This document shows positions 26,326 to 50,309 of a DNA stretch of 64,000 bases, piece by piece. The notes beneath the pieces were generated by a model, which saw only the letters and a list, made by a program, of their open reading frames with translations, was not told the origin of the DNA and made no database searches. The stretch is from assembly GCA_030917815.1 (NCBI GenBank), contig JAUPTZ010000013.1:3109-67108 (forward strand), given 5' to 3'. The DNA comes from Candidatus Babelota bacterium. Its GTDB lineage: Bacteria > Babelota > Babeliae > Babelales > JAUPTZ01. How positions within the stretch are numbered: position 1 is the first letter of the stretch; each line of letters starts with the position of its first letter. A program made the translations under genes and the position numbers.

Positions 26326-29010
<2,685 letters not shown>

Positions 29011-31007: not shown

Positions 31008-31271
31008 CTAATGAAAAAACTCACGAACAATGAAGTCAATCATACCAAACGCAGCCATCACACCGTAGACAAAAATAATACTCCCAAGCCACTCAAGGCC
31101 AATCGCAAGCCTCATAAGCCGCCGCCTACGCAGACCAGTTGCCCTTTGTGCTGCATACCAAAGAATAAAAAGCGACAGCCCCAGGCATAGCGCCGTAGCC
31201 ACCACCACGTGGTAGGCATAGGGCCACGAGAAGAACATCGTACTTTGCGCCACAGAGCATTTTTCCGCCAT
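31008..31271 (-). CDS. Small membrane protein
   Basis: About 87 aa with 2-3 hydrophobic helices. The ATG at 31271 overlaps the upstream TAA (TAATG). Confidence 0.5.
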   Translation of the reverse strand: MAEKCSVAQSTMFFSWPYAYHVVVATALCLGLSLFILWYAAQRATGLRRRRLMRLAIGLEWLGSIIFVYGVMAAFGMIDFIVREFFH

Positions 31272-32023
31272 TATCTCACCCTCCAAAACCATTTACTCGT
31301 CGAATCGGACTGCACTACTCGTACGTAAAACGTATGAAGCATTGCCACAAAAAAGAGATATAAAATCATTGATACGCCATATTTCGTTGCATATGGCACA
31401 AAATAATGCTCATCAAGCGGCGTCAGATTCCATATCAAAGCATGGAGCTCAAACAAGAGGCCATGGGCCGCTCCAACACAAAGTAAAAACGGTGCATACA
31501 TAAGGTTGAGTATCAACCCATTATATATTGAGTAGAAAAAGCTCTTAAGAGAATACTGAGCATCGAACAAAAAGAAGCTTATCAGCCAAAAAACCGGAAT
31601 CGTATAAATCTGCGGCACTACAAAAAAGAGTAGCGCATAGAATGGCAAGCGCGCACTGTAGCGGATGAAGTAGCCAGCTGTTTTTGCTTCTAGTGAAGAA
31701 CGCACACTGAGCATCATCACAAATGAAACGATCATAAGACTGCAGAGATAAATTCGCGGCGCAGCACCAATGCCATAGTACATCGGGGTAAAATATTCCC
31801 AGAAATGAGAAAAAAGACCGGTACCATCGATATAAAGGTCGACATAACCTGTCCACAGAAGCAACCACCAAGAGAAGTAACAAAGCAGCAGGCTGGAACT
31901 GCGCACAAGCGTATTAAGCGACGCAAGAGAAAGCATAGTCAGCTCTTTCGGCTCGAACAGATCAATTGAGGCATACCACTTATGCAAGAGTGTTTTTAAA
32001 AAGCCGGTTTGTGCGCGATGCAT
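31271..32023 (-). CDS. Polytopic membrane protein, unknown function
   Basis: 250-aa ORF, aromatic-rich, with about 6 TM segments. Confidence 0.6.
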   Translation of the reverse strand: MHRAQTGFLKTLLHKWYASIDLFEPKELTMLSLASLNTLVRSSSLLLCYFSWWLLLWTGYVDLYIDGTGLFSHFWEYFTPMYYGIGAAPRIYLCSLMIVSFVMMLSVRSSLEAKTAGYFIRYSARLPFYALLFFVVPQIYTIPVFWLISFFLFDAQYSLKSFFYSIYNGLILNLMYAPFLLCVGAAHGLLFELHALIWNLTPLDEHYFVPYATKYGVSMILYLFFVAMLHTFYVRVVQSDSTSKWFWRVR

Positions 32024-32180: not shown

Positions 32181-33326
32181 TTAGACAAGCGGTTCATTCT
32201 CAGCACCTTCGACAACCGCTCCTTCATCAATACTATGAATAGCGAGAGCAAGGGCCAACACAGCCTCAGCGCAAGCTGGACTATCCAGAAGGTTTTTTTC
32301 AACAATAGCAAAAAGAGCATCGACTAACTGCTGCCTACTCATCCCTGCGGCCAACTGCCCTGCAATCGGTTCAAGCAATAAAAATAACGCTGAATCCTCT
32401 ATGGAAAGGTCACCCTTAACCAGGCCATAAAGCGCCATAATATCATCTAGGCTTTTTGGCATATCGTGCTGAACACCCTCCCCTAAGACAGATCGACAGG
32501 AAAAACTCGATATATGTTTTTCATATTGCTCTGCGAGTTGAGACATAAGATCCTCTCGTCCTAATCCATTGAATGCTGGGTCAAGAGTGGCCACAAGAAA
32601 ATTAGTTTCTCTTATCTGCAAAAAAATAAGCATCTTAATGTGACGAATAAAAGACTCAGAATGGTAAAACAAATCCTCACACACGGTGGTTAAATACTTA
32701 GTATGACAAATAAGCCACGGCGCAAAAAATCCGGTAAAATAATAGGGAATATAAATAGCCCCACCAAAAACAAAATAAGATATCAACGAGCAGACCGCAA
32801 AAAAAATTCTCTCTTGGTCAGAATCAGGCATTTCCCCCAGCTCCTGCAGTACTCTCCCATCCTGAAAAAGCTTTCTATACCGGGACGGATAATAAATGAA
32901 ATATTTCTCACCAATTTTTAATGGCTCTGCATATTTTTCTTGAACGCTAATTGTATCAATCGACAAAACACAATCTGATTCTGAATCACTCTCTTCCTCT
33001 GAGGCTGATTCAGAATCAGAATCAATGCCATCAAAAGAGTGTTTGATCATCTGAACACTCCTTGCTTCAAGTATTTTCTTATATTTTTCAGTCAGCGCCA
33101 CGGTAGAAAATAAAGCCTCTACACAACCATCAGCAGAACGATTTATCCGAACATTAAGGCACCCATGAGACTCACGCTTTACCAGCAACTGCTCATTACG
33201 ACCAAGAGCAAGAGTATACAGAGAGGAATTGCTTCCAACCTCACCTAAGTCAACACTAGAGACATTAAAACTAATCCCACAGAGACTTATACAGAAAACA
33301 TACCACATACTATTATTTAGAAACAT
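32181..33326 (-). CDS. Hypothetical protein with acidic Ser-rich tract and a central hydrophobic hairpin
   Basis: 381 aa. Signal-like N-terminus, DGIDSDSESASEEESDSESD tract, and a roughly 40-aa hydrophobic segment FFAVCSLISYFVFGGAIYIPYYFTGFFAPWLI. Confidence 0.6.
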   Translation of the reverse strand: MFLNNSMWYVFCISLCGISFNVSSVDLGEVGSNSSLYTLALGRNEQLLVKRESHGCLNVRINRSADGCVEALFSTVALTEKYKKILEARSVQMIKHSFDGIDSDSESASEEESDSESDCVLSIDTISVQEKYAEPLKIGEKYFIYYPSRYRKLFQDGRVLQELGEMPDSDQERIFFAVCSLISYFVFGGAIYIPYYFTGFFAPWLICHTKYLTTVCEDLFYHSESFIRHIKMLIFLQIRETNFLVATLDPAFNGLGREDLMSQLAEQYEKHISSFSCRSVLGEGVQHDMPKSLDDIMALYGLVKGDLSIEDSALFLLLEPIAGQLAAGMSRQQLVDALFAIVEKNLLDSPACAEAVLALALAIHSIDEGAVVEGAENEPLV

Positions 33327-33470: not shown

Positions 33471-34829
33471 ATGATCGCGCTTATTACCGCATTTATCCTC
33501 TATACGCTCATCCTTATTGGTATTGGCGCTTATGGCTACAAAAAAACCTTGGCCTCTGGTGATTTTGGCACCGGCAACCGCACCATGAACTACTGGATCA
33601 CCGCACTATCAGCCCTTGCTGCCGACATGGGCGTTTATCTCTTTTTTGGCTTGCCTGGCGCTGTCTATCTCTCAAGCACCGAATGTTGGACCGTTTTCGG
33701 CCTCGTCGGCGGGATGTGGGCAACCTGGCATTTCATTGCACCAAAACTCCGTACTCGAAGCGAAGAAAGCAACAGCAGCACCCTTACTCATTTCCTGTGC
33801 ACAACGGCCGGGGATACTCACGGGTACCTCACGATCGTTAGCTCAACATTACTTACCTTCTTCTTTATCTTTTACATTGCGGCCGCTTTTAGCGGTATTG
33901 GCAACATTATTGCCTACACCTTTGGGTCACCCTACTGGATTGGCGTCGTTGCAAGCGCCTGCATGGTTACCTTTTATATATCGGTTGGCGGCTATCTTAC
34001 CGTTGCGCTAGCCGACGCTTTTCAAGGTGTTTTTCTCCTCTCAATGGTAGTCATCGTCCCCCTTATTACCGCATGGAACTTAGCAAAAACCGGTGTTTTC
34101 TCAGGGCCGACTGACTACACTGCATTCACGCCGACAACGATCGGTATTGGCGCCGGTATAGCGGCTGCGGTCAATTGGGGTCTTGGCTACCTTGGTATGC
34201 CACATATTCTTACTAAATTTATGGGAATCGACTCGGTTAAGAACATGAAAAAAGCCCAGTACCTTGGGCTCTCTTTTCAAGCCATTGCGCTGAGTTCCTC
34301 GGCCATTATCGGCCTCCTCGCTCGCTCCTACTTCCACACCCCACCTGCATCGGCCGAAACTCTTTTTTTACATATGGTTATGGAGCAATGCGCGCCCCTG
34401 CTAGCCGGTTTCATTCTCTGCGCAGTTATGGCGGCCGCAATCTCATCGCTTGATGCACAACTTATTGTCTGCGCATCGGTTATTGCCCGAGATCTCTTTA
34501 AGGCAAAAAATGCTCATCAAGAAAAAATCATCACCCGCCTCAGCACGATGGCCATCGCAGCCATTGGGGTCTGCATTGCGCTCACAAACACAAGTACCAT
34601 GTATGCCATGGTCCGCTATGCCTGGTCAGGACTTGGCAGTACCTTTGGCCCACTCGTTGTCATGAGCCTTTATGCACCACAACAACTCACCACCCGAAGC
34701 GCACTGGCCGGCATATTAGTTGGTGGCCTCACTGCCGCCCTTTGGCCTTATTACGGACCATTTTTAGCAACGGCACCGCTTATTCCTGGCTTTTGTAGCG
34801 GCCTCTTTGTTATGTACGCCTTACCCTAG
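33471..34829 (+). CDS. Sodium:solute symporter family (SSF) transporter
   Basis: 452 aa with about 12-13 TM segments. The N-terminal pattern (YLILIGIGAYGYKKT..DF..GNR.M) is typical of PutP/PanF-like SSF proteins. The substrate cannot be called. Confidence 0.75.
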   Translation: MIALITAFILYTLILIGIGAYGYKKTLASGDFGTGNRTMNYWITALSALAADMGVYLFFGLPGAVYLSSTECWTVFGLVGGMWATWHFIAPKLRTRSEESNSSTLTHFLCTTAGDTHGYLTIVSSTLLTFFFIFYIAAAFSGIGNIIAYTFGSPYWIGVVASACMVTFYISVGGYLTVALADAFQGVFLLSMVVIVPLITAWNLAKTGVFSGPTDYTAFTPTTIGIGAGIAAAVNWGLGYLGMPHILTKFMGIDSVKNMKKAQYLGLSFQAIALSSSAIIGLLARSYFHTPPASAETLFLHMVMEQCAPLLAGFILCAVMAAAISSLDAQLIVCASVIARDLFKAKNAHQEKIITRLSTMAIAAIGVCIALTNTSTMYAMVRYAWSGLGSTFGPLVVMSLYAPQQLTTRSALAGILVGGLTAALWPYYGPFLATAPLIPGFCSGLFVMYALP

Positions 34830-36871
34830 TCGCTGTCTACTTTGTTCTTTCGGTACTGAGCGTATTTGTAGAGACCGGCCACTGCAAGCGCACCAGCAGT
34901 AGCAAGACCTGCATAGGCAAAGCCTTGGCCAACTTTTTGTGCGGTGCTCATGCCACCAGCTGCTTTATATGGCGTAAGTCCCCAAAAGGCATGCGCCTTA
35001 TCGGTAAAGCTTTTCTTAACATTGGCAGGAAGCACCCCAACTTCCGCATCATTGGCAATGGCAATCCCGGTTATCGGTGCGCGGCTAATAAATCCCGCAG
35101 TCGGGCTATCACGATCAAGAGATACCGGCACCACAATACCGTCCGGGGATGAACACCAATATTGAAACGGAGAATACGAGAATTGAGACTCTCGCGCATC
35201 CTTACCCCACCAATCATAATACGGTGGTGGATTAACTACAAAGCCACTTGGTATCAATAAAACCCCATCGTACGAAACCGCATGGTCAGCAGTTAAGAAT
35301 TTAACCTGAATCATCGCCCCTACATCACTAGGATTAGCCCACGTTGTTTTAAAATTCTTTATGCTTGTATCAATACCATCTTCAAGTACCGCACTCATTT
35401 CTTTTCCAAGCGCATAAAATGCCGACTCGGCTAAAACCATGGCATTCAACGGAAAAATTTGTACCTCCTCCCTTGCAAGTACCGTTACCTTATTAAGTGG
35501 ACGCATATAAAAAGCACATTGACCGCCAAAGAACTTCGCACTCGCCGCTATAACAAACCCACTTGCGTCGTACGAAAGCTGCAACTGCTGGTAAAGATCT
35601 TGCCGATCTTTATCAATCTTCTTCTGTTTATTTTGATCAGAATCGGAAACACCCACAAGTGCGAGATACGAAGATCGAAGGCTTTCTTGCTTATCTGCGG
35701 TAACCGGATACGCAAGCCCATCAACATATATCTGCCCTGATGGATTTAGTGCTGGATCAAAAAAAGCACCCCCTTGTATAGAAATTGAGGTCGCATCGGC
35801 CGAAAGTGCAAGACCAGCTGTCGTATTTTTCCACGCCGAAAACGCTGGCACAGTAGCGGTCACCGGACTGGTCAATGACAGCGCGATGAAGGTGGTATCG
35901 GTCGGCGTTGCACCACTAACTGCAAGATAATAATCGGCCAATTTCATACCAAAAGAGGTTGGCACGAATATCCGATGTGGCTGTGGTATTATGCCTGAAG
36001 AACTAGCGCTTATGCCATCATGCGACAGTTTATTAAGCCAATATTGCTTTACCGTAATCGGTGCCATGAGAGGATTCATTACTTGATAGATCATGCTTTG
36101 CGGGAGATTATAGGTAGTTGTTCCTATAGTTACCGCTACGGTCGCAGCGGTCGCTGTCGCAACGCTTACGGCAGCCAAAGTATTAGAAATCGTATACGAA
36201 CCAACCACCGGCTGAGGACTGACGTACCCATTTGCTCGAGCACCAATAATAGGGGCATTTTCCGGATTCGAGATATCAAATGCGAGACGCTTACACGGAT
36301 CCATAAGAATATCACAATCGAACGACGAGATCGGATAAGGCTTTGGCACATTCCCTGCCCCGATTGCCACCGCATCATATGCAATAGAGGTCTCATTACC
36401 GCCGGTTGCAAAAGCCTGCAATGCAACAGCCCCCGACGGATATTTTACGCAGACCAAATAATTATCACCATGAATCCACATTCGCGTACGACCATCGGTG
36501 GCAAGCCCAACCCCACTTACATCTACCCAGCGACTCCCATCAAATACCACCGCCAAATAGACCGTTGTCATAACTTGCTTGCCGCTAATCAGTTGTGGTG
36601 TACCATCAGCGTTGTACCAGGCAACCTCTGCCGCATAGTAATACGGCGCAACAAAAATAGGGCTTCCCCCGGGCGGAGAGAGCACTGCTTTACGAAGCGT
36701 GAATAGTGAAAGTTCACCAACCTGATAGATCGGCGCACTCTTACCAGGAGCGAGCTGTGGGGTAATGGCAATCTTCCTCTCTACAAAATCATCAGCAGAA
36801 AGCCACCCACCACCGGAAACAATACAGAGAACTAGAAAACTTTTAAGAACTTTATGTCGCACAGAATACAT
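34826..36871 (-). CDS. Large signal-peptide protein with C-terminal TM anchor, paralog 1
   Basis: 681 aa. N-terminal hydrophobic signal, then C-terminal GFAYAGLATAGALAVAGLYKYAQYRKNK. Roughly three quarters identical to the next gene. Confidence 0.75.
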   Translation of the reverse strand: MYSVRHKVLKSFLVLCIVSGGGWLSADDFVERKIAITPQLAPGKSAPIYQVGELSLFTLRKAVLSPPGGSPIFVAPYYYAAEVAWYNADGTPQLISGKQVMTTVYLAVVFDGSRWVDVSGVGLATDGRTRMWIHGDNYLVCVKYPSGAVALQAFATGGNETSIAYDAVAIGAGNVPKPYPISSFDCDILMDPCKRLAFDISNPENAPIIGARANGYVSPQPVVGSYTISNTLAAVSVATATAATVAVTIGTTTYNLPQSMIYQVMNPLMAPITVKQYWLNKLSHDGISASSSGIIPQPHRIFVPTSFGMKLADYYLAVSGATPTDTTFIALSLTSPVTATVPAFSAWKNTTAGLALSADATSISIQGGAFFDPALNPSGQIYVDGLAYPVTADKQESLRSSYLALVGVSDSDQNKQKKIDKDRQDLYQQLQLSYDASGFVIAASAKFFGGQCAFYMRPLNKVTVLAREEVQIFPLNAMVLAESAFYALGKEMSAVLEDGIDTSIKNFKTTWANPSDVGAMIQVKFLTADHAVSYDGVLLIPSGFVVNPPPYYDWWGKDARESQFSYSPFQYWCSSPDGIVVPVSLDRDSPTAGFISRAPITGIAIANDAEVGVLPANVKKSFTDKAHAFWGLTPYKAAGGMSTAQKVGQGFAYAGLATAGALAVAGLYKYAQYRKNKVDSD

Positions 36872-36928
36872 TGCATTGACCTTTCAAATATCAGGGTAAT
36901 TTTCTCGAAGCGTACTAGTAGGCATACC

Positions 36929-39022
36929 CTAATATCCGTCTGCTTTTCGTTGTCGATACTGGGCGTATTTGTAGAAAGCAGTCAACGCAAGCGCACCGCC
37001 GGCAGCAATACCTGCATAGGCAAAGCCTTGGCCAACTTTTTGTGCGGTGCTCATACCCGCTGCTGCTTTAGTTTCTTCTTTATACGGAGTCAATCCCCAA
37101 AAGTCATGCGCCTTATCGGTAAAATTTTTCTTGAGATCGGCAGAAAGCGCAGTGACTTCCGCATCATCAGCAATAGCAAGACCGGTTATCGTCGACCCGC
37201 TAAAATCAGCAGACAACTGCGACACAACGCCACCCGATGGCGAATACCAGCATTGAAGACATAACGGCGCCATATCATAACGATAATATGGTACCGGATT
37301 AGCTACAAAGCCACCTCTCGTCACTAAAATTCCATCGTACGACACCGCAGCATCGGCGGTCAAAAATTTAACTTGGATCATCGCACCTACTTTACTTGCG
37401 TCGGCCCAGACTTTTTTAAGATTTTTTGCGCTCGTATCGATACCGTCCTCAAGTACCGCATTCATTCCTTTGCCAAGCGCATAAAATGCCGACTCGGCTA
37501 GAGCTACCGCATTCAACGGATTTTGTAGTACCTGATCCCTTGCAAGTACCGTTACCTTATTAAGTGGGCGCATATAAAAACCACATTGACCGGTAAAAAA
37601 TTGTGCACTTGCTGCTATAACAAACCCACTAGCATCGTATGTAAGCTGCAACTGCTGGTAAAGGTCTTGACGATCTTTATCAATCTTTTTCTGTTTATCC
37701 GGATCAGAATCTGAAACACCCACTAGTGCGAGATACGAAGATCGAAGGCTTTCTTGCTTGTCTACGGTAACGGGATAGGCAAACCCATCAACATACATCT
37801 GCCCTGATGGCCTTAATGTCGGATCAAAAAAAGCGCCTCCCTGTATCGAGATTGAGGTCGCATCGGCTGAAAGCGCAAGCCCAGATGCAGTGTTTTTCCA
37901 CGCTGAAAAAGCTGGCACGGTAGCGGTCATCGGACTGGTCAGTGATAACGCGATAAAAGTAGTATCGGCAGGCGTTGCACCACTAACCGCAAGATAATAA
38001 TCGGCTAACTTCATATCAAAAGCAGTGGGGACACACGCCTTAAATGGCTGTGGAGTTACGACGGGGGAACTAGCGGGCAAGGTACCTGCCGAAGAAACAG
38101 CACTTATGCCACCATGCGATAACGTATTAAGCCAATATTGCTCTACTGTAAGCGGCGTTGCTGCCACTGGAGTTTTCGACCCGGCAGCCGGTGTAGCGGC
38201 TATCGACGTTGTGAGAGGATTCATTACTTGATAGATCATGCTTTGCGGAAGATTATAAGTAGTTGTTCCTATAGTTACCGCTACAGTAGCAGCGGTCGCT
38301 GTCGCAACGCTTACTGCAGCCAAAGTATTGGAAATAGTATACGAACCAATCACCGGCTGAGGACCGGCGTACCCATTTGCTTGAGTTTCAATAATAGTGC
38401 GACCGCACGATCCATCAGTATTAAAAAACGTAGCCGGCAGTGTAAGGACATCAAGATCTAACGAAGAAATCGTATAAGGCTTCGGCACATTTGCTGTACC
38501 AATTGCTACGGCATCATATGCAATAGAGGTCTCATCACCACCGGTTGCAAAAGCCCGCAATGAAACAACCCCTGAGGCACTCTTTGAGCAAACCACATAG
38601 TTATCACTATGGGTCCACGTCCGCGTAACACCATCGGGTGCAAAGCCAACCCCACTCACATCTTTCCAGGTGCGTAGAGACGTATCATACATCAACGCCA
38701 AATAGACCGTTGTCGTAACCTGCTTACCACTAATAAGTTTTGGTGTACCACCAGTGTTGTACCAGGTCACCTCTGCCGCATAGTAATACGGCGCAACAAA
38801 TATAGGACTCCCCCCGGCCGGAGAGAGCACCGCTTTACGAAGCGTAAATAGTGAAAGTTCTCCAATACTCAGCTGCGTCATCTTACCGGGAGCGGCCGGT
38901 AGCTGCGGTACCGACACCGAAATTTTCCTCTCCACAAAGTCATCGGCAGAAAGCCAACCACCACCAAAAACAATACCGAAAAATAGAAAACTTTTGAGGA
39001 GCTTATGTCGCACACAATACAT
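36929..39022 (-). CDS. Large signal-peptide protein with C-terminal TM anchor, paralog 2
   Basis: 697 aa with the same architecture. The leader sequence (tttgaaaggtc.atgc.ATGta) is shared with paralog 1. Confidence 0.75.
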   Translation of the reverse strand: MYCVRHKLLKSFLFFGIVFGGGWLSADDFVERKISVSVPQLPAAPGKMTQLSIGELSLFTLRKAVLSPAGGSPIFVAPYYYAAEVTWYNTGGTPKLISGKQVTTTVYLALMYDTSLRTWKDVSGVGFAPDGVTRTWTHSDNYVVCSKSASGVVSLRAFATGGDETSIAYDAVAIGTANVPKPYTISSLDLDVLTLPATFFNTDGSCGRTIIETQANGYAGPQPVIGSYTISNTLAAVSVATATAATVAVTIGTTTYNLPQSMIYQVMNPLTTSIAATPAAGSKTPVAATPLTVEQYWLNTLSHGGISAVSSAGTLPASSPVVTPQPFKACVPTAFDMKLADYYLAVSGATPADTTFIALSLTSPMTATVPAFSAWKNTASGLALSADATSISIQGGAFFDPTLRPSGQMYVDGFAYPVTVDKQESLRSSYLALVGVSDSDPDKQKKIDKDRQDLYQQLQLTYDASGFVIAASAQFFTGQCGFYMRPLNKVTVLARDQVLQNPLNAVALAESAFYALGKGMNAVLEDGIDTSAKNLKKVWADASKVGAMIQVKFLTADAAVSYDGILVTRGGFVANPVPYYRYDMAPLCLQCWYSPSGGVVSQLSADFSGSTITGLAIADDAEVTALSADLKKNFTDKAHDFWGLTPYKEETKAAAGMSTAQKVGQGFAYAGIAAGGALALTAFYKYAQYRQRKADGY

Positions 39023-39153
39023 CGCATGGACCTTTCAAACATCGGGGAAACTTTTACCTATAGATCTCAATTATTTACTAAAGCGCTACCGTTAAATACA
39101 ACAAAATAGATACTCTTCAGCAGAGCACGTTCGACAGAGAAATCAATATAAAG

Positions 39154-39252: not shown

Positions 39253-41499
39253 ATGCCAAAACTCCTCATTGTTGAATCACCTGCCAAGATAAAAACCATC
39301 GGTAAATTCTTGGGAAAGGAGTTCAAGATCATGTCCACTTTTGGCCATGTCAAAGATTTACCACCTCATAAAATTGGGGTCACCATAACCACCGACAACC
39401 ACATCGACCTTGAATATGTACCCCTCGCCGATAAAGCCGATACGATCGCACAAATTTGCAAGCAAGCACGGCAATGTGATGAAGTCTTTCTCGCATCAGA
39501 CCCTGACCGTGAAGGAGAAATTATTTCTTGGCACATTGGTCAAGAAATAGCCAAGGTACTTAAGAACGGGCAAATCCATCGCATAACATTCAACGAAATT
39601 ACCAAAACGGCCGTTGAGCAGGCTATAGCCGATAAGCGCAGTGTTGATGAGAACAAAGTGCATGCACAGCAGGCACGCCGGGTTCTTGATCGCTGGGTTG
39701 GTTATGAGGTCTCTCCTATTTTATGGAAAAAGATCACCAAAGGGCTTTCGGCCGGTCGAGTACAATCGGTTGGTTTGATGCTAGTCTGCATTCGTGAAGA
39801 TGAAATTACCTCGTTTAAGGTAGAAGAATATTGGTCGATCCATGGCATTTTCACCATTGACGGGGAAACATTTGAGGCCGAATTGGCCCGCGTTAAAGGC
39901 AAGAAGCCAACGCTGGAAACCAAAGAAGTGGTTGATGCCATTATTGCACAGCTCAAAAATACGGCCTATGCCATTAGCAAAGTCACCGACAAGAAGCGAC
40001 TGAAACAACCGGCGCCACCGTTTATGACCAGTTCATTACAACAAGATGCGTTCAATAAGCTTGGTTTCTCGGTTGACCGCACTATGCAGATTGCGCAAAA
40101 ACTCTACGAAGGTCTGCCGCTTCGCGATAAAGATAATCCAGAAGCGCTCATCACCTATATGCGTACCGACTCGCTACGCATCTCCGATACGGCCATGACC
40201 GATGTCCGTGATTACATTAAAACAACGTTTGGCTCTAAGTACTTACCTTCAAAAAGCCGCCAATTTGAGGCCAAAGGTGCATCACAAGATGCCCACGAAG
40301 CGGTACGCCCTATTGATGTAAAACATACACCAGAAAAAGTTGGTCCGTATTTGAGCACCGAACAAGCAAAGCTCTATGAGCTTATTTGGAAACGGTTTGT
40401 TGCCAGTCAAATGGAAGCGGCCGAATATTTCCAACGCACCGTACAAATTGAAGGTGGTGATTATGAGTTCCGCACCACCGGATCAACACTTATGTTTGAC
40501 GGTTTTTTAAACGTCTACCTAGCTGAAGAAGATGAAGAAGAAAAATCGGCAACCATTCCAAAATCAGTAGCTGACGGCAAAGCGGTTGACCTGGCAAAAG
40601 GTGAAGGCAAACAACACTTTACCAAACCGCCAGCTCGCTATACACAGGCTACCCTGGTGAAAGAACTTAAAGAAAAAGATATTGGTCGCCCAAGTACCTA
40701 CGCCGCAATTCTGTCAACGCTCCAAAAACGTAACTACGTGACCGTTGATAACAAACGCTTTGCACCGTCGGAACTCGGCCGCTCCGTAAACAAACTCCTC
40801 ACTGAGCACCTTCCCGACATTATCAACGTTGACTTCACCGCAACTATGGAACAGTCACTCGATAAAATCGCTGAAGGCACCGTAGATCGTGATAGCGTTC
40901 TCCTCGCTTTTTACGCAAAGTTCAGTAAAGACCTGGAAGCGTTTGGTGGCGCTCCAGGGAAAAAGGAAGCACAAAAAACCGACCTCGTATGCCCAGAATG
41001 TGGAAAGTCGCTCTATATTCGCTTTGGCCGTGGCGGTGAATTTGTTGGATGTGAGGGTTTTCCCGACTGCACATTCACTAGCAATTATACTCGGGACGAA
41101 CAAGGGACCATTATGTTGACTGCAAACGAACCAAACCAACCGGAAACAACCGGCCTTAAATGCCCAAAATGTAGCAAAGAGATGGTAAAACGGATTGGCA
41201 AGTTTGGCCCATTCATTTCCTGCTCAGGCTATCCGGCCTGCAAACACATCCACCAAGAAACACTTAAAATGCCCTGCCCAAATTGCGGCAAAGCAATTGG
41301 CAAACGAGCCTGGCGCGGCGGCACCTTCTGGGGATGCACCGGTTACCCAACCTGCAAGTTCGCCGTTTTTAACGATGTACAAGAAACACCATGCCCAAAA
41401 TGCAATAGCCAGCCGTATCTAGTTATCAACAAAGGTAGAGATGGAAGCACCACGCTCTCCTGCCCAAGTAAAGAATGTGGTTATACGTCAAAAGATTAG
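39253..41499 (+). CDS. topA: DNA topoisomerase I
   Basis: Toprim start LLIVESPAKIKTI, active-site region ITYMRTDS, and four C-terminal CxxC...C zinc ribbons. Confidence 0.95.
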   Translation: MPKLLIVESPAKIKTIGKFLGKEFKIMSTFGHVKDLPPHKIGVTITTDNHIDLEYVPLADKADTIAQICKQARQCDEVFLASDPDREGEIISWHIGQEIAKVLKNGQIHRITFNEITKTAVEQAIADKRSVDENKVHAQQARRVLDRWVGYEVSPILWKKITKGLSAGRVQSVGLMLVCIREDEITSFKVEEYWSIHGIFTIDGETFEAELARVKGKKPTLETKEVVDAIIAQLKNTAYAISKVTDKKRLKQPAPPFMTSSLQQDAFNKLGFSVDRTMQIAQKLYEGLPLRDKDNPEALITYMRTDSLRISDTAMTDVRDYIKTTFGSKYLPSKSRQFEAKGASQDAHEAVRPIDVKHTPEKVGPYLSTEQAKLYELIWKRFVASQMEAAEYFQRTVQIEGGDYEFRTTGSTLMFDGFLNVYLAEEDEEEKSATIPKSVADGKAVDLAKGEGKQHFTKPPARYTQATLVKELKEKDIGRPSTYAAILSTLQKRNYVTVDNKRFAPSELGRSVNKLLTEHLPDIINVDFTATMEQSLDKIAEGTVDRDSVLLAFYAKFSKDLEAFGGAPGKKEAQKTDLVCPECGKSLYIRFGRGGEFVGCEGFPDCTFTSNYTRDEQGTIMLTANEPNQPETTGLKCPKCSKEMVKRIGKFGPFISCSGYPACKHIHQETLKMPCPNCGKAIGKRAWRGGTFWGCTGYPTCKFAVFNDVQETPCPKCNSQPYLVINKGRDGSTTLSCPSKECGYTSKD

Positions 41500-41548: not shown

Positions 41549-42076
41549 TTACTCCTCGGCGAACACATCTATCGGATACGCAGCTTCATATTTAGAAAGG
41601 TATGCCTCCAGCGCTTGCCGCACTTGATAAAGATGCAAAAGCGCCGCCGGCTCCAAACTCTCTTGATCTCCGGTACTCAATAGCGCTAACAAATCATCGA
41701 TCGCAGCGTGACAAGATGATGCCATAACAAGTTGTACTTTCATACACTGGTTGATCTCCACACGAGCTTTATCTGGAGCAGTTGCTTGACTCGGTGTATC
41801 AATAAACACTCCGTTCATAAGACTATCAATAAAGAATGCCATATCTAAGTCTGCTATCATACATTTTGCTTCAAGATAGGTTTTGGCATCATACTTGAAC
41901 TCAAGATATTCATGATGCCGAAAAATATTCCCTACATCATGAACGAGACTCTCATACAATTGCTGACTGCTCATAACAAGCTCATCATGGCCAAAATCGC
42001 TTATAGAATCACTATCTGATGCATTGAGACCAATACTAAAAATTATCACTATTCCCCACAATAGCTTTTTATTCAT
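41549..42076 (-). CDS. Small secreted helical protein (T1)
   Basis: The likely start is MNKKLLWGIVIIFSIGLNA (signal peptide) at 42076; the track ORF extends further to 42256. Confidence 0.6.
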   Translation of the reverse strand: MNKKLLWGIVIIFSIGLNASDSDSISDFGHDELVMSSQQLYESLVHDVGNIFRHHEYLEFKYDAKTYLEAKCMIADLDMAFFIDSLMNGVFIDTPSQATAPDKARVEINQCMKVQLVMASSCHAAIDDLLALLSTGDQESLEPAALLHLYQVRQALEAYLSKYEAAYPIDVFAEE

Positions 42077-42267
42077 ACGTTCGATGCCTTTCGCTTTTGA
42101 GCATGCCCTAAAATGTCTGCTTACACACTGCGCCGCGGGGCGACCAGTGTAAACTCTAACTAAAAAAACAACCATACCGTAGGTATTTTTTCCACCTGGA
42201 CAAACCGGTATTATTGAGGCATCATGACCTTGCTGCTTATTAACCTTAAAGCACAAAGGTCACTCGT

Positions 42268-43308
42268 ATGAACAACTTAAGAACCCTAGTACGAACCGGT
42301 GTAACTATAGTAATAATAGCTTTGCTTGGTTGGTACACCTGGAAGCAAACCATAGCACAACCTCAATACACCATTGGGCTAGTCTATTGCCCTTCATTTC
42401 CGTTTCATGAATCTATCAATACCACTCTCATACAAAAGTTAAAAGCGGACGGCCGCTTTAAGATACAAACATTTGCGGTACCCACCGTCAACGATATGGT
42501 TATCGTCAATTCGATAGGTGGATCGGCATTAGAAAGCACGGCAGATGCTATCGTATCCACCGGCATCAGCTGCTCACAAGCCGTCACTCAATTATCACGC
42601 AAACGCAACTCTCTTAAACCGATTGTCTTTGTTGGAGTAAGCGATCCGGTAAGTTGTGGCATCATCTCCTCGCTTGAAAACCCTGGTGAAAACATCACCG
42701 GCATTAGCTCAAGCCTTCCGTACGATGACAACTTCAACGCAGCCAACCTGCTGATGGTGGTCAAACCAAACACGCGTCATGTATTGTTGCCCTACATAGC
42801 GACTGACAATGAATCTATGGCAAAAAATATCAAAACTACTTTAGCTTCTTATAGTGTCGCCACCACACTTCTCCCGGTTAACAATGAAACCGAAGCACTT
42901 ATGCGCATTACCGGCAAGCTTCTCGGCCATGACACACTGATGTATCTGGAAGACGATGGCTTAGCAGCACAGGGACCGGCAATGGGAAAATTAGCATCAC
43001 AACACAATGTCACTATGTTCGCCGGTTCTATCGACGGAGTAGAAAATGCGGCTCTTTCGTACGTTGCAAACCCGGCCTCTCTGGGAAATCACGCGTTCGA
43101 CCTGATAAAACAGGTGTTCCTCGATCGAAAAAATCGAAGCACTATCCCGGTACAATACGCGGTAATCAAGCGTAATTTGATTATCAACACCGCATTGTGC
43201 AAAGAACAAGGCCTCAAAGATATAAAGCTCTCCCTTACCCCGATTTTGGCACATATTCGCAGCGATGAGCGCTTTGCATTAATGCATGATAACATCATCG
43301 TGAAATAG
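42268..43308 (+). CDS. ABC-type substrate-binding protein (ABC_sub_bind/COG2984 type), membrane-anchored, orphan
   Basis: N-terminal TM helix. PIVFVGVSDPVSCGIISSLENPGENITGISS matches the family core. No permease or ATPase gene is adjacent. Confidence 0.7.
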   Translation: MNNLRTLVRTGVTIVIIALLGWYTWKQTIAQPQYTIGLVYCPSFPFHESINTTLIQKLKADGRFKIQTFAVPTVNDMVIVNSIGGSALESTADAIVSTGISCSQAVTQLSRKRNSLKPIVFVGVSDPVSCGIISSLENPGENITGISSSLPYDDNFNAANLLMVVKPNTRHVLLPYIATDNESMAKNIKTTLASYSVATTLLPVNNETEALMRITGKLLGHDTLMYLEDDGLAAQGPAMGKLASQHNVTMFAGSIDGVENAALSYVANPASLGNHAFDLIKQVFLDRKNRSTIPVQYAVIKRNLIINTALCKEQGLKDIKLSLTPILAHIRSDERFALMHDNIIVK

Positions 43309-43322: not shown

Positions 43323-43796
43323 CTAGCAGCTTTTAAAGGCACTCCCAAAAGTCTTCACTAGAACAGAAAGGTGCTCGACGATTTTCTGGGCATCGCTCTC
43401 TTGCGATGATTTCCCCGCTAGGGCCAAGGCCTGCAAAAGAATCCCGCCTGCCCTGCTCATGAGATCAACCATCTTCTGGTGAATATCGGCATACGCCTCG
43501 GGCACTGCAACTCTTATTATCCCTTTTTGCTCAGCCAGAAGCCGCGCCTTAAAGTAGTTGAGATTCGTATCACCTGAATTTATAAGTGAAGAAAGTGTTT
43601 CCACAAGTTGAGTATATTGCGCAGCAACGTCCGCATACGAAGCCTGAGTAGGATAAGCCATATACACAGGCATCCCATCAACAATAGGTGCACTCGCCAT
43701 CACCCCATATGTGGCCATTTTTTCATCGGCACAATCCATCGCATACGCAGCAACGCCCATACTGACACACAAACCAAAAACTACCTTTTTCATCAT
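43323..43796 (-). CDS. Small secreted helical protein (T2)
   Basis: MMKKVVFGLCVSMGVAAYA signal peptide, with AAGGAA 6 nt upstream of the ATG at 43796. Confidence 0.6.
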   Translation of the reverse strand: MMKKVVFGLCVSMGVAAYAMDCADEKMATYGVMASAPIVDGMPVYMAYPTQASYADVAAQYTQLVETLSSLINSGDTNLNYFKARLLAEQKGIIRVAVPEAYADIHQKMVDLMSRAGGILLQALALAGKSSQESDAQKIVEHLSVLVKTFGSAFKSC

Positions 43797-43873
43797 ATGG
43801 TATTCCTTAATGCAGATTAAAATAGAAGAGGCAGTAGCACCGTACAACACCGCCACCTCTTCAAAAAAAGTAT

Positions 43874-44320
43874 TTAGCCTTCTATCTCAGCATTATGCGC
43901 ATTAATCACTTGCCATAACAATGTGTGCCACGCAGTAAGAAAATCCCTATCTTCCTGCGATAAGGAATCGTGATAGTACTGATTCAGCTGGCAAATATAG
44001 GCCGTGGCAACCCGTGCATAGGCTAAGCGCTCCTCATGCCCAAGATCCACAGCCTGTATTGCAAACAACACGAGCCTCAATGAGGTTTGCAAGAATGTAA
44101 AGCTCGGCACTTCGTTGGCCAGTACAAGTGGCACCGCAGTCCTTGGCGCCATGCGTGGCGGCGTTTCTTTTTGTGGAATGCCCCGACGACCGGCTGGAGA
44201 CCCTGGCGCACCGGCCGGAATTACCTGATAATTTTCGGCCATGGGCACATCGTTATCCATTGCACATACCGTAGCAACGCCGGTGCACAACAGTAGCACA
44301 CTGCAAAGATTTTTTAACAT
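43874..44320 (-). CDS. Small secreted protein with Pro-rich linker (T3)
   Basis: MLKNLCSVLLLCTGVATVCA signal peptide, then PAGAPGSPAGRRGIPQKETPPRMAPR, then a helical C-terminal half. Confidence 0.6.
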   Translation of the reverse strand: MLKNLCSVLLLCTGVATVCAMDNDVPMAENYQVIPAGAPGSPAGRRGIPQKETPPRMAPRTAVPLVLANEVPSFTFLQTSLRLVLFAIQAVDLGHEERLAYARVATAYICQLNQYYHDSLSQEDRDFLTAWHTLLWQVINAHNAEIEG

Positions 44321-44465
44321 ACGTATAATTCCTTATTCATTACCTGATGAAATGAGTAAAAACATACGGCTTTAAGATTCTATGAAACATGATCAGAGGG
44401 GGAAAATATACTATCAAGATTTCATGATAGAAAACAACAGTTAACCGCAGCACCCCTAAAAAGAT

Positions 44466-45080
44466 CTAACAACCAAACACTTCACGATACCGCTTAACCC
44501 GGCCTGAAACGATAAGGTCGCTGGCATATTTAGCATCAATCATGCTCAGTGCGTTGGCACCTAAAACAGAAATACAGGCATCATAGAACAATCGCATGAG
44601 CGCAAAAATGATGCGTCGACGCGATTCTGCAAATGAAAGCGGTATTTCCACCGAATCGGCCACTGCCGGAGAAGCATCACTGAAAAGCCGCCGCACGCAA
44701 GACTTGGTAGCGACATTCAAACGCATTCCTTGCTTCGCAACTTGCGGATGTCGATGATACTCATCACGATAGGCTACATACTTTGCAGAAAGGAAGCTAA
44801 GACTATTCCAAGCGGCCACCACATCGGCTTCTGCACGCATATTGTAGATCACCATAAATGCCTCACCAGCTTGCTCAACCGCTTGCTTTGCCTCTGCATA
44901 AGGAGATAGTGGTGACCCCGGTTCTTCTACAACCGCCGTGACGCCAACCGGATTAGGCGCACACACAAAAAAGGTAAATATACGCCGCATGGTAAGCTCA
45001 TCACACGAAACATCACCGGCCCATGTAACCGAATGCAAGGCACACGTAGCAAATACCGCCAAAAATAGTTTTTTATACAT
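44466..45080 (-). CDS. Small secreted helical protein (T4)
   Basis: MYKKLFLAVFATCALHSVTWA signal peptide; start at 45080. Confidence 0.6.
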   Translation of the reverse strand: MYKKLFLAVFATCALHSVTWAGDVSCDELTMRRIFTFFVCAPNPVGVTAVVEEPGSPLSPYAEAKQAVEQAGEAFMVIYNMRAEADVVAAWNSLSFLSAKYVAYRDEYHRHPQVAKQGMRLNVATKSCVRRLFSDASPAVADSVEIPLSFAESRRRIIFALMRLFYDACISVLGANALSMIDAKYASDLIVSGRVKRYREVFGC

Positions 45081-45213
45081 ACAAAAATTCCCCAATGCAT
45101 TTTCTAAAATACATACGGCTGTGTATAAGAAACTCTGGGACGGCGGAGTGTATCATAGAGAAAAAAAATAAGCGCACTTTTACATGCGCCTATTTTTTTA
45201 CGGTAAGTAGCTA

Positions 45214-46002
45214 CTAAAAGGTGAATGCTGCGTCAGGAGATTCTGCACGATCAAGCAGCCCAGGCTCAGGCAATGCGCCAAGCACCTCCTGAAGTAACGG
45301 ACCATACACCGCTTTAACTTTTCCAGCGAAAGTGCCCTTTTTTCTGGCATACGCCTCATACTCTCCTCTAAATTCCTCAGCAAAAGCTTTAAACTTCAAC
45401 TCTTCCCCAGACTTCCAAGATGCCGCAACACATGCAGAGTATAACGCCGGCAAATGCTTCGCCTGCGAAAAACGGTTAATCAGGCCCTGATACGCGATGC
45501 AATGTTCCGATAGAACCATATATACATCTTGGCAGAGTTGAAGCGCGCTTTTAAGAAACTCCACCATCTCATCTAACGTACAATCAAAACGCTTAGCAGA
45601 CCGAGGATCCAAGATATATATCATACAAGTTTCATCGATGAGCCGCATTAAATGCCCGCCATATTCAGCATGCCCCACAGAGCTGTCATAAAGACAGCCG
45701 CTCAAGTAATCGCTTAATTCTTCGCGGCCTCTCTCTGTTTCTTTTGCATAGAGTTGTTGCGGCGCCGCAACCAATGCAGCGAGATGCTGCATCTGCTTTG
45801 TTGTAAAATCGCGTCCACGTTTTGCTACCGCTGCCATTACTTTATCAACACGCTTCCTGAGTACCTTTTTTCGTGAAGACATCTTTTTTGTCTCTCCTGC
45901 AGATGAAGATACAACCGGAGAAATTGGCTCACTCGATGCACTGGCCAACACAGTGCCCCCAACACTAACCATAATCAACGCACTTACTATTATTTTGTAC
46001 AC
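45214..46002 (-). CDS. Secreted hypothetical protein (T5)
   Basis: GTG start at 46002 with AAGGGA 7 nt upstream. Signal-like YKIIVSALIMVSVGGTVLASA. Confidence 0.6.
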   Translation of the reverse strand: MYKIIVSALIMVSVGGTVLASASSEPISPVVSSSAGETKKMSSRKKVLRKRVDKVMAAVAKRGRDFTTKQMQHLAALVAAPQQLYAKETERGREELSDYLSGCLYDSSVGHAEYGGHLMRLIDETCMIYILDPRSAKRFDCTLDEMVEFLKSALQLCQDVYMVLSEHCIAYQGLINRFSQAKHLPALYSACVAASWKSGEELKFKAFAEEFRGEYEAYARKKGTFAGKVKAVYGPLLQEVLGALPEPGLLDRAESPDAAFTF

Positions 46003-46090
46003 GCACGTGTCCCTTATTCATGAAGTTTATTAAGTAGATGGCTACGCCGCAGCGCTTGGGGAAACGAATTATAGAGAAAAATAAAACTAA

Positions 46091-46840
46091 TTAAACTTTT
46101 TTCGGCACTTCTGCCAAAAGACCATTAATATAGACTATCGCTTGCATAACTCTTTCAGTAAGCAAAGTAGTCAGCTTGGTAAACTCGTTCGTTAGCCGCA
46201 TCCCGGTACGTTGGCATTCATCATACTGCAACACCATACAGGCTTGAAACTCTCTTTTATACGCACGGGCGATACCAAGAAGCTTGGTCAAGGCACTGCT
46301 CTTGCTACACCTTCCCGCAGTACGGTAAGCGCTGTCGCTTTGCCTATATTCCCACTCTAAATCCAGAACCAGTTGCCATCGCTCGCGAAGAGTAAGCACC
46401 TCTGTAAGCATAGCGAGAACATCATGTTCATCTACGCCGCAGCGAGCTACTACTAATCTAGTAATGACTTTAATTAATGCAGCACGCTTCTCATCGTCCT
46501 CTGGAAAGTACACACAGAGACCAGTAAGACACCGCACGACTGCCAAAAGCTCTTCATCTTTAAAGCGTAAATCGGCCACTGCTCGCATAAATCCATACTG
46601 CTCAAACTGCATGAATACACCTTCAGCCACTTCACTCAAGTTTGTAGCCGCTTGTGGTTCAGCTACATGCCTAGCCACTACCGTCATGTCGGCCAGAAGC
46701 TTTGAGTAATCGACTTCCTTAGTAAAGACCGTTAACGATGGAGTGAGTTCCCCTGAGACGGATGAAGGAGAGTCAGCCGCGCTCAATCCATGAGCTAGGG
46801 CACACGAACATGCCAGTATCATCAGTATTTTTCTATGCAT
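46091..46840 (-). CDS. Secreted hypothetical protein (T6)
   Basis: MHRKILMILACSCALAHGLSA signal peptide with a helical body. Confidence 0.6.
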   Translation of the reverse strand: MHRKILMILACSCALAHGLSAADSPSSVSGELTPSLTVFTKEVDYSKLLADMTVVARHVAEPQAATNLSEVAEGVFMQFEQYGFMRAVADLRFKDEELLAVVRCLTGLCVYFPEDDEKRAALIKVITRLVVARCGVDEHDVLAMLTEVLTLRERWQLVLDLEWEYRQSDSAYRTAGRCSKSSALTKLLGIARAYKREFQACMVLQYDECQRTGMRLTNEFTKLTTLLTERVMQAIVYINGLLAEVPKKV

Positions 46841-46916
46841 ACATACTTTCTTTTTTCTGCTCTAAACATACTACAACGCACGGCTGCATAAAAAAATTAC
46901 TGGGAGCGCGAATCTA

Positions 46917-48398
46917 TCACATATAGAAAGAAAAAAGAATGATTTGAACAATAACCCATACCACATCACCGGCTAAAACGCCGGACCAAAACAATGTGCT
47001 TTTCGCCACCCGACGCGTTATCGCACGAATGCCCGCACCGCAGGCAAGTGCAATAATCAAACCATTGGGCATAATAAGACCACCAAATACCATCGCTGCG
47101 TTAATACCTAAGCGATCAAGAAGAAAACCCAGCGCAATACCAAGAAGGACAATCGTCGTATTAAATTGAAAAGTGTTCATCAATAATGCCCGTGAGATTC
47201 CCCGATGCGCAATCAATGGAGAGACACCAAGCGTGAAATGGGTACATAATAGCCAGATAAGGACTCCAATACTCATCGCAGTAATAGCGACTCCATAGTA
47301 TTGTGCACGACGTAACGTTGGCTCATCAATGCCACACTGCTGAGCAATTTTGTAGGAAAACAAACTATCAACAAGCACTCCGCCCGCAATACCAATCAAC
47401 GTACAGGCAATAACCACCGAAACACCCGACACCCCCGGAATACACATCAACGGAATCATAGCAATCGTCATGTAACGACCATAGGTGGCAAGGCCAGTAT
47501 GCGCCGCAAGATCACCTAAATGCCGCAGCAACGGCACTAAAATAATCGCAAAAAAACAAACCCCGGCCAGAGACATATTAAAGTAGTAACAGAGACCGGC
47601 CACCAGCACTCCACTCCACAAATCGGTTTTTCTCAATACCGCCAGAGTTGTTGCTCTTAAAGAAACTATAGAACGCATCGGATGATAGACAAACGGCTTT
47701 ATAAAACTACTCACTAAGAGGCCACTACACAACGCAAACGTCACATCAAGCGTTGAAAGCGCTGGATAGCATTGCCCCAGTGGCGCCACCACCACATATT
47801 TACCGGCCATTCCCACCAACATAGGCATTACAATACTTGTGCCGGCCAGAAACCCGGCCGCCCAACAAACCGGTGACAGCCCAAGTGCCCAAAAATAGTT
47901 AGCGCACCCGGTTGCCATTGCGCACAAGATTCCGCCGCCAAAAATACCGGCTTCAAGTGGACCATAAGAACTTGCAATGGCGCTCGTAACGGCCGCACTT
48001 ACCGGAAACGGTGTCGCATCATGCAGCAATGCCGGCACCGCATGCTTTGCAATGCGGATGCCAAGAATGCCGGCCGATAATACCAGCACTGCCATGAGCG
48101 CGCAAAACCAAAGCGGTGCAGCCATCCAACTCGCCCACAGGGCTGGGTCAATAAAATAAAGCGTAGGAAGCGAGAATCCAATGCCGGTGGCAATAGCACC
48201 TCCAAACGAGGCGGTAATAGTTATCAGGGCAATAGTGCGACTTTCAAGTCGCTTAAAAGAGAATGATCCACCCAACCGCACCATCATGACAATCATTGGC
48301 CCAATCCAGGGCCCCAACCCGGTCGCTAACGAAACATACAATAAGATAGCAGCCGAAAAAACCGTCAACACTGCCGAAAAAATAAGCGTAGATAGCAT
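46917..48398 (-). CDS. Polytopic transporter-like membrane protein (possibly OPT-superfamily)
   Basis: 493 aa with about 14 hydrophobic segments. The N-terminal pattern resembles bacterial OPT proteins, but I cannot verify family membership. Confidence 0.45.
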   Translation of the reverse strand: MLSTLIFSAVLTVFSAAILLYVSLATGLGPWIGPMIVMMVRLGGSFSFKRLESRTIALITITASFGGAIATGIGFSLPTLYFIDPALWASWMAAPLWFCALMAVLVLSAGILGIRIAKHAVPALLHDATPFPVSAAVTSAIASSYGPLEAGIFGGGILCAMATGCANYFWALGLSPVCWAAGFLAGTSIVMPMLVGMAGKYVVVAPLGQCYPALSTLDVTFALCSGLLVSSFIKPFVYHPMRSIVSLRATTLAVLRKTDLWSGVLVAGLCYYFNMSLAGVCFFAIILVPLLRHLGDLAAHTGLATYGRYMTIAMIPLMCIPGVSGVSVVIACTLIGIAGGVLVDSLFSYKIAQQCGIDEPTLRRAQYYGVAITAMSIGVLIWLLCTHFTLGVSPLIAHRGISRALLMNTFQFNTTIVLLGIALGFLLDRLGINAAMVFGGLIMPNGLIIALACGAGIRAITRRVAKSTLFWSGVLAGDVVWVIVQIILFSFYM

Positions 48399-48479
48399 GC
48401 GAATGTTCCTTTAAAACCGGTAAAATGCTCTGTAGGCTACCATACCTAAAAAAAATTTACGCTGAAATGCATTTTTCTA

Positions 48480-48508: not shown

Positions 48509-48529
48509 CACACCTCGTTTTGAAATTTT

Positions 48530-50281: not shown

Positions 50282-50309
50282 CTTATCTTTAATCACTTGG
50301 GGGGGCCTA

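Follow-up and report, generated by a model that had tools for sequence, protein, structure and literature searches.

Chlamydial Pmp and rickettsial Sca proteins are autotransporters in which a C-terminal beta-barrel is combined with repeat-rich passenger domains. Anaplasma Msp2/P44, Borrelia VlsE, Neisseria pilE/pilS and Treponema TprK are known for archives of silent partial cassettes and for recombination tracts. Both groups are compared here with a tandem pair of genes, A and B, located in a 64,000-nt chromosome segment of a Candidatus Babelota bacterium (contig JAUPTZ010000013.1, positions 3,109 to 67,108; about 47% GC, nine tRNA genes), which as a whole is called the window in the following. 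The two proteins are recorded in the databases as hypothetical proteins of a Candidatus Dependentiae metagenome-assembled genome (MAG), and Dependentiae are widespread, almost wholly uncultured protist parasites, with exported ORFans making up nearly half of their proteins. Like Pmp and Sca, the A/B family consists of fast-evolving paralogs of host-dependent bacteria, predicted to be exported envelope proteins, that expand in tandem and combine conserved scaffolds with variable loops. In contrast, A and B have a C-terminus predicted to be helical, no autotransporter or other Pfam domain and no internal repeats. With the antigenic-variation loci they share a mosaic of conserved and variable blocks and a hypervariable segment between conserved flanks. 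However, A and B are two complete genes, no cassettes are present in the 64 kb, and the silent divergence between the copies is statistically uniform. On balance we favour the explanation that A and B are a lineage-specific tandem duplicate of a fast-evolving, Sec-exported, membrane-tethered envelope protein, and that the mosaic arose from uneven constraint.

The pair and its leaders are arranged as follows:
36929-39022, minus strand: gene B, the upstream copy, an open reading frame (ORF) of 697 amino acids (NCBI QG604_750)
34826-36871, minus strand: gene A, the downstream copy, an ORF of 681 amino acids (NCBI QG604_749)
39023-39054, minus strand: leader of B, about 32 nt, covered by repeat family D6, which reaches 39054
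36872-36903, minus strand: leader of A, about 32 nt, the duplicate of the B leader
36904-36928: unique spacer of 25 nt

Both proteins are 69% identical over 716 alignment columns with 58 gap positions (BLASTP, E = 0); over the 660 aligned codons, identity is 75% for amino acids and 80.4% for DNA. Gene B scores 781 bits against the hidden Markov model (HMM) of the family. The direct-repeat spacing of the copies is 2067-2151 nt according to the DNA repeat families, and the duplication unit begins some 32 nt ahead of the ATG and extends about 4 nt beyond the stop codon. An earlier note on this DNA had described a tandem duplication of about 2.1 kb with a shared leader of about 35 nt, together with several peptide blocks and indels. 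The duplication and the two ORFs were recovered, all of the quoted blocks and indels are present in the A/B alignment, and about 32 nt of the leaders align, including tttgaaaggtc.atgc.ATG. Also supported is the view of the two as exported paralogs in which conserved blocks stand beside variable ones.

The same note had attributed the block-wise identity to ongoing gene conversion plus diversifying segments, as in variable surface proteins. We examined silent changes between the copies, and they do not support conversion. By the Nei-Gojobori method, synonymous divergence (dS) of the pair is 0.50, nonsynonymous divergence (dN) is 0.158 and dN/dS is 0.31, with dN smaller than dS at p = 1.5e-24. 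Since dS is this high and dN is clearly below it, both copies are functional and under purifying selection, and the duplication is not recent. Sliding windows of 40 codons along A and B contained none with dS below 0.20, and the longest exact nucleotide match is 45 nt. For the conversion test only the 479 codons encoding the same residue in both copies were used, 126 of which carry a silent difference. Permutation revealed no significant clustering of these differences, neither for the longest stretch free of silent differences (19 codons, p = 0.30) nor for the most extreme segment (p = 0.26). A conversion-driven mosaic was rejected, as sliding dN/dS, silent-site permutation and exact-run counts showed no tracts. 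Absence of such tracts had been named in the note as a refutation, and at silent sites this is essentially what is observed.

The blocks on which this comparison turns are the following:
37832-38011, minus strand: most constrained block of B, residues 338-397
35765-35944, minus strand: most constrained block of A, residues 310-369
38213-38347, minus strand: conserved block of 45 amino acids in B, predicted by AlphaFold2 to be a beta-hairpin, the internal segment of highest hydrophobicity
36068-36202, minus strand: counterpart of this 45-aa block in A
38366-38470, minus strand: hypervariable loop of B, residues 185-219, alignment columns 186-222
36221-36331, minus strand: hypervariable loop of A, residues 181-217
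38159-38209, minus strand: Pro/Thr/Ala-rich insertion of 17 amino acids present only in B, TSIAATPAAGSKTPVAA, in an inter-domain linker
38060-38086, minus strand: insertion of 9 amino acids, GTLPASSPV, present only in B in the A/B alignment
37136-37351, minus strand: variable pre-anchor domain of B, residues 558-629
35021-35284, minus strand: variable pre-anchor domain of A, residues 530-617

The most constrained block (alignment columns 341-400) is 97% identical in protein sequence, yet its proportion of nonsynonymous differences (pN) is 0.03 and that of synonymous differences (pS) is 0.47. Since replacements are this rare while silent changes are frequent, the identity of this block is kept by purifying selection. 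The blocks that had been cited as nearly identical at the DNA level fall into two kinds. The 45-aa block (94.8%, 128/135) and the KQESLRSSYLALVGVSDSD block (96.5%, 55/57) are indeed so, but MIQVKFLTAD is only 76.7% identical in DNA (23/30). In the AlphaFold2 model of B the 45-aa block comprises strands at residues 246-251, 254-259 and 263-267. Silent divergence dips to a pS of 0.18-0.19 in columns 221-280 and 481-520.

At the other extreme, the loop in columns 186-222 has a pN of 0.42 and a pS of 0.30, with a dN/dS of about 1.3. The diversifying segments proposed earlier are thus partly borne out: compared with the rest of the gene, the loop has an excess of replacement changes (ratio of nonsynonymous to synonymous differences, Nd:Sd, odds ratio 3.85, p = 4e-4), but dN is not significantly higher than dS within it (p = 0.28). 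The pre-anchor domain shows a dN/dS of 0.46-0.70 and two indels. Amino acid differences between A and B favour columns that are variable family-wide (Mann-Whitney p = 3e-4). The B-only insertions sit at low AlphaFold confidence (predicted local distance difference test, pLDDT, about 51), and pLDDT falls below 50 at B residues 270-286 and 309-319, the linkers at the indel sites. At the site of the 17-aa insertion, two other family members (P0006 and P0007) carry far longer insertions. Taken together, uneven selection along the protein accounts for the mosaic, without any need to invoke gene conversion.

The genomic position of the pair allows its history to be followed. It lies between two conserved genes:
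33471-34829, plus strand: sodium:solute symporter gene (SSF; Pfam PF00474, E = 1e-46), convergent with A
39253-41499, plus strand: DNA topoisomerase I gene topA (Pfam PF01131, E = 5e-124), divergent from B

The symporter gene marks the 3′ end and topA the 5′ end of a syntenic slot, in which five other lineages have a single copy (the loci L001/3/4/8, L005, L006/7, the contig of P0007, and L010). The SSF neighbour is also found in L001, L005, L006 and L010. The stop codon of gene A overlaps that of the symporter gene in a CTAG palindrome (34826-34829), and such overlapping stops (CTAG, TTAA or TTAG) occur in the window as well as in L001 (11614-11617), L005 (10011-10014) and L006 (11932-11935). 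In L010, the two genes are 43 nt apart.

The family is evolving fast in comparison with its neighbours. Between the window and L001, TopA is 89% identical (dN 0.071), GyrB 87% (dN 0.090) and the SSF symporter 81% (dN 0.134), whereas the A and B proteins are only 35% identical to their L001 ortholog, with a dN of 0.61-0.63. This corresponds to about 8.6 times the dN of TopA and about 4.6 times that of the symporter. Against L006, TopA is 83% identical and the A/B protein 25-27%. The dS between window and L001 amounts to 1.67-2.19 for TopA, GyrB and SSF. Because the dS of 0.50 between A and B is smaller, the duplication is younger than the split from L001. In the neighbour-joining tree A and B are sisters with 100% bootstrap support, and the pair is sister to the single-copy orthologs of L001 and L005, again with 100%. 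Changes unique to one copy are slightly more frequent in A than in B, at 31 versus 22 (p = 0.22) when P0003 serves as outgroup and 28 versus 13 (p = 0.019) when P0004 does.

Further tandem copies exist elsewhere in the family. Three adjacent paralogs are encoded in L009 (3253-10335; 807, 696 and 827 amino acids) in an ABC-transporter context; they are 30-41% identical, monophyletic at 98.5% bootstrap, and each has a different C-terminal module. The third combines Ala/Gly-rich repeats with a Gly-zipper and YQYRANK followed by a 22-aa tail, another carries about 170 amino acids of Gly/Ala/Val-rich repeats at its C-terminus, and the remaining one ends in a short amphipathic segment. These differences point to swapping of the tether module between copies in L009. 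At least two family copies are present in L011, and the expansions in L009 and L011 are independent of that leading to A and B. The survey of copy number in relatives, which had been proposed as a check on conversion, found the nearest lineages to be single-copy, and the window contains no silent or partial cassettes. The pattern corresponds to birth-and-death evolution, with adjacent same-strand sisters, single-copy sister lineages, retention of both copies and no significant silent heterogeneity.

In two further loci the family gene is split in two, namely in L005 (7945-10014; 538 and 146 amino acids) and in L012 (3303-4923; about 307 and 250 amino acids). A pseudogenising stop or frameshift, or an assembly error, could be the reason.

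Conversion between A and B finds some support in the block-wise amino acid identity, in the fast rate of the family, in the two blocks with 95-96% DNA identity, in the two dips of pS, in a borderline variance of silent differences between windows (p = 0.075) and in the clustering of paralogs within one genome, which concerted evolution predicts. However, the conserved blocks are rich in silent changes, and a tblastn search with A and B against the 64-kb window detected no further copies and no partial or silent cassettes. The locus thus holds two full-length copies only, each with its own ribosome-binding site, and no short tandem repeats of the simple-sequence or phase-variation type were found in it. 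The L009 paralogs, now 30-41% identical, have diverged without being homogenised.

In our preferred explanation, a single gene in the topA-SSF slot was duplicated in tandem once this lineage had separated from the nearest one sampled. The copies have since diverged under purifying selection of varying strength along the protein. The structural cores are closely conserved, whereas the pre-anchor domain, the linkers between domains and a single loop are relaxed or diversifying. The predicted protein consists of a Sec signal peptide, an ectodomain of about 620 amino acids of mixed beta/alpha structure, in which neither a known fold nor catalytic residues could be recognised, and a C-terminal membrane-association module; it would cross the inner membrane and remain attached to an envelope membrane, in the periplasm or at the surface. 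Its most likely role would be a structural one, or one in binding, at the interface between parasite and host. A tandem duplicate that diverges under uneven constraint is in itself an ordinary and well-known phenomenon.

The features at both ends of the proteins are listed here:
38945-39022, minus strand: predicted Sec signal peptide of B, residues 1-26, MYCVRHKLLKSFLFFGIVFGGGWLSA, with cleavage before DD (heuristic)
36794-36871, minus strand: predicted Sec signal peptide of A, residues 1-26 (heuristic)
36932-37036, minus strand: C-terminal module of B, the Gly-zipper helix VGQGFAYAGIAAGGALALTAF and, behind it, the aromatic/basic tail YKYAQYRQRKADGY
34829-34933, minus strand: C-terminal module of A, VGQGFAYAGLATAGALAVAGL followed by YKYAQYRKNKVDSD

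The signal peptide noted earlier is well founded, as far as heuristic calls can tell: B has a basic n-region, a hydrophobic region of 14 amino acids and Ala at position -1, and A and the relatives follow the same plan. Every family member with an intact N-terminus has a signal-peptide-like sequence with Ala at -1; P0005 starts after the signal-peptide region in the family alignment. The C-termini of A and B read VGQGFAYAG(I/L)A..GALA...(F/L) and then YKYAQYR(QR/KN)K. This module of a glycine zipper, AYxxY(K/R) and basic residues is common to P0003, P0009 and the 827-aa copy of L009, and the basic tails after the helix are YRQRK, YRKNK, YKRRKENK, YRRRQENK and YRANK. A motif scan of all ORFs of the window, L001, L005, L006 and L009 detected the module only in the A/B protein family. 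What the family members would have in common is an exported ectodomain of about 620 amino acids combined with a C-terminal device of one kind or another for membrane association.

Dependentiae are described as diderm and host-dependent, with a degenerate envelope, a Sec system and a type II secretion system (PMC4776705, PMC6561590). In Chromulinavorax destructans about 44% of the coding sequences have signal peptides, and this set is enriched in ORFans (PMC6561590, PMC4776705). Since the cells are diderm and the proteins combine a signal peptide with a C-terminal tether, A and B would by default be tethered to the inner membrane, with the ectodomain in the periplasm. The mature protein has a mass of about 70 kDa and is acidic.

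Several points weigh against our preferred explanation. The first group concerns the tether. The C-terminal helix is only marginally hydrophobic, with a KD19 value of 1.34-1.37 in A and B and 1.02 in P0003, where the classical threshold for a membrane helix is about 1.6. The Hessa-scale sum is about +3.3 kcal/mol for A and B and +6.2 kcal/mol for P0003. Members of clade II of the family lack the Gly-zipper helix and end in a short amphipathic F..RIAAVF motif, so that the tether is not proven as a family trait. Of the single-pass C-terminal anchor that had been suggested for both proteins, the Gly/Ala-rich helix and the basic RQRK or RKNK tail are present, but with the weak hydrophobicity and the absence of the module in one clade the anchor is plausible but marginal. 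The second group concerns location. In a diderm, a signal peptide with a C-terminal transmembrane helix and a positive-inside tail predicts a periplasmic protein of the inner membrane and not a surface protein; a role at the host interface would need a further export step. The statements on localisation and function depend on heuristic signal-peptide and transmembrane calls. The third group concerns the history of the pair. The permutation test on the variance of silent differences between windows was borderline (p = 0.075), and the 45-aa block has a lowish pS of 0.19, around which an old, partial conversion event could have taken place. Monophyly of paralogs from the same genome is also expected from concerted evolution, and it is only the single-copy sister lineages that argue for a recent duplication.

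Homology searches gave no hint of a known family. Neither A and B nor any other family member had a significant match in Pfam, NCBIfam or PHROGs, and the family profile reached a best E of 1.3 against PDB sequences. With these results, assignment to a known family or enzyme was rejected, and the homology to a known periplasmic enzyme family that would have spoken against the earlier interpretation was not found. A word-indexed search of 5.8 billion proteins, with the single protein and with the family alignment, returned only the A/B pair itself. The exhaustive HMMER search of 1.84 billion cluster representatives delivered nine further representatives, one of them from another Candidatus Dependentiae MAG and none with a functional name or with a name that points to a cultured isolate. 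Searching with the clade I alignment added one genome locus and one metagenome locus. No relatives were found by tblastn in the phage and plasmid collections, and an origin from a phage or plasmid was rejected. The family is undescribed, without detectable fold relatives, and has so far been seen only in Dependentiae-type contigs.

The family alignment (A2) is divided into two clades and shows the conserved motifs APYYY, W.DVSG, R.W, YYLK, FF.GQ..FY and PYY...Q.WY. Among the 60 best-conserved columns are 13 Tyr, 5 Phe, 4 Trp, 7 Gly and 7 Val, and there is no His, Cys, Glu or Lys. With conservation falling mostly on aromatic residues, Gly and Val and on none of these four, the pattern speaks for a scaffold with a structural or binding role and against an enzyme. 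PYY...W motifs are present at both ends of the protein; an internal domain duplication was rejected, as hhalign probabilities did not exceed 2.5%.

Structure prediction with AlphaFold2 failed when it was run on two sequences (pLDDT 27.8) and produced a usable model from the 11-sequence family alignment (pLDDT 70.6, pTM 0.67). In this model, beta-rich segments cover about 29-160, 211-267, 291-417 and 547-617. Residues 420-461 form a helical hairpin that is restricted to clade I in the alignment, and a second helical region lies at 495-533. From residue 620 to the C-terminus the model is helical, including a long isolated C-terminal helix of low confidence. There is no outer-membrane beta-barrel at the C-terminus, which is helical in the model and matches no Pfam barrel domain. 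Foldseek comparison of the model, which had also been suggested earlier, found no match: the best E was 0.57 against PDB and 0.56 against BFVD, and the query TM-scores stayed under 0.1.

Two explanations other than the one we prefer deserve attention, although we consider both of them unlikely. In the first, the proteins would be housekeeping periplasmic proteins anchored in the inner membrane, for example partners of the symporter or of envelope biogenesis, and their fast rate would reflect weak constraint in a reduced genome. The tight adjacency to the SSF gene with overlapping convergent stops in four lineages is in line with this, as are the overall dN/dS of 0.31, the acidic mature protein and the periplasmic ectodomain that the predicted topology implies in a diderm (PMC4776705). 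However, the convergent orientation excludes co-transcription with the symporter gene, and the members in L009 and L011 are located away from topA and SSF. A dN several times that of both neighbours is hard to reconcile with housekeeping, the hypervariable loop and the repeated independent tandem expansions better fit an interface under pressure, and no binding-protein or enzyme family was matched.

The second would go further than the explanation we favour and, with a similarly low probability, make the family a novel host-interface protein of Dependentiae, possibly with a new fold, such as an adhesin or host-range determinant, encoded in a hypervariable topA-SSF slot, evolving at roughly nine times the rate of the neighbouring genes, repeatedly duplicated in tandem and subject to module swapping. 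Its C-terminal membrane-association module would be exchanged between three forms, namely long Gly-rich repeats, an amphipathic helix of short length and the Gly-zipper helix. If this were true, arms races between host and parasite in the phylum could be followed with the topA-SSF slot as marker locus.

Considerably less probable is the idea that the Gly-rich helix and basic tail form a sorting signal, which an enzyme of the exosortase, rhombosortase or sortase type would cleave off in order to attach the protein to the cell surface after type II secretion. The layout resembles the tripartite CTERM signals: GlyGly-CTERM/rhombosortase, PEP-CTERM/exosortase and PFE-CTERM proteins also combine a signal peptide, a Gly-rich hydrophobic helix and a basic cluster, and they occur in diderm hosts with type II secretion, components of which are encoded by Dependentiae (PMC4776705). 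A helix too weakly hydrophobic for a classical stop-transfer anchor would also suit such a signal. In contrast to these signals, the A/B module has no signature motif, is confined to one family in the sequences scanned and is not always terminal, with 22 further residues behind it in the 827-aa L009 copy and no module at all in clade II. No curated LPXTG, PEP-CTERM, GlyGly-CTERM or PFE-CTERM signature of NCBIfam was reached at cutoff in the C-termini of the family. In the NCBIfam CTERM scan of five C-termini at E <= 10, only P0003 matched, to PFE-CTERM with 14.3 bits against a cutoff of 24, and this match covers only the transmembrane and basic part, without the signature motif. The module was seen in no other protein of the window or the other loci scanned, and no candidate sorting enzyme was found in the scanned parts of the window.

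Least probable of all is the system of variable surface proteins driven by ongoing conversion between A and B, given the silent divergence described above.

The module can also be compared with the glycine zippers known from Gly-zipper_Omp, Gly-zipper_YMGG and the Rickettsia 17-kDa antigen type, with which it shares the G/A-x3-G/A spacing and a weakly hydrophobic helix. Zipper spacing together with weak hydrophobicity suggests helix-helix packing or oligomerisation in the membrane. Unlike in the Pfam Gly-zippers, the zipper of A and B follows an ectodomain of about 620 amino acids and is itself followed by a conserved aromatic/basic YxxYR/K tail. The Pfam Gly-zipper models did not match the C-termini at E <= 10.

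With these analyses, one exported ORFan family is now defined by its genomic slot, structural model, relative rate and variable C-terminal tethers. It is a concrete candidate for the envelope or host interface and might be used as a fast-evolving marker in metagenomes.

Regarding expression of the pair, the intergenic junction of 57 nt consists of the A leader and the unique spacer. Since this gap is so short, A and B are probably co-transcribed from a promoter upstream of B. A GAAAGG motif resembling a Shine-Dalgarno sequence is present in the leaders, 8-9 nt ahead of the ATG in B. Promoter and terminator scans of the locus gave counts not clearly above the shuffled expectation, and the Rfam scan of the window detected only tRNAs. 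Long ORFs run antisense within both genes (36020-36706, 38138-38461, 34799-35149 and 36836-37261, all on the plus strand). That they pair as paralogs in an all-versus-all comparison is a consequence of the duplication, and they are probably not genes.

The slot beyond the symporter gene is hypervariable as well. In the window it holds a signal-peptide ORFan of 381 amino acids with an acidic Ser/Asp/Glu-rich stretch (32181-33326, minus strand); the ORFs at this place in L001 (13125-15500, 791 amino acids) and L005 (11632-13014, 460 amino acids) have no detectable similarity to it. The next gene of the window (31271-32023) encodes a multi-pass membrane protein that is 65% conserved.

Tandem duplication appears to be common in this genome, as at least four tandem paralog sets besides A/B are present in the window, among others at 4913-6153, 53882-56084 and 59117-61204. 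They include a pair with 54% identity, a pair of MerR-domain proteins with 45% and a triplet of about 210-235 amino acids with 27-37%. Eight consecutive ORFs of 148-493 amino acids without Pfam match are located at 43874-52058, at least one of which (43874-44320) has a signal-peptide-like N-terminus, and the ORFs at 41549-42256 and 43323-43856 are also without Pfam match. This run fits the ORFan-rich exported proteome reported for Dependentiae.

Beyond topA, the window contains one ABC_sub_bind gene (42268-43308, plus strand), where L001 (2014-5183) and L005 (795-3956) have three tandem ABC_sub_bind paralogs each; a distant paralog with 27% identity is located at 10336-11400 of the window. A Bat-like operon on the minus strand (18735-23565) encodes a BatD-domain protein, two VWA-domain proteins and an unassigned ORF, and is adjoined by an acyltransferase gene. 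Finally, the GyrB ORF (26326-28854, minus strand; 842 amino acids, TTG start) has about 44 more N-terminal residues than its L001 ortholog (798 amino acids); the alignment to L001 begins at residue 45, and the true start is probably located downstream.

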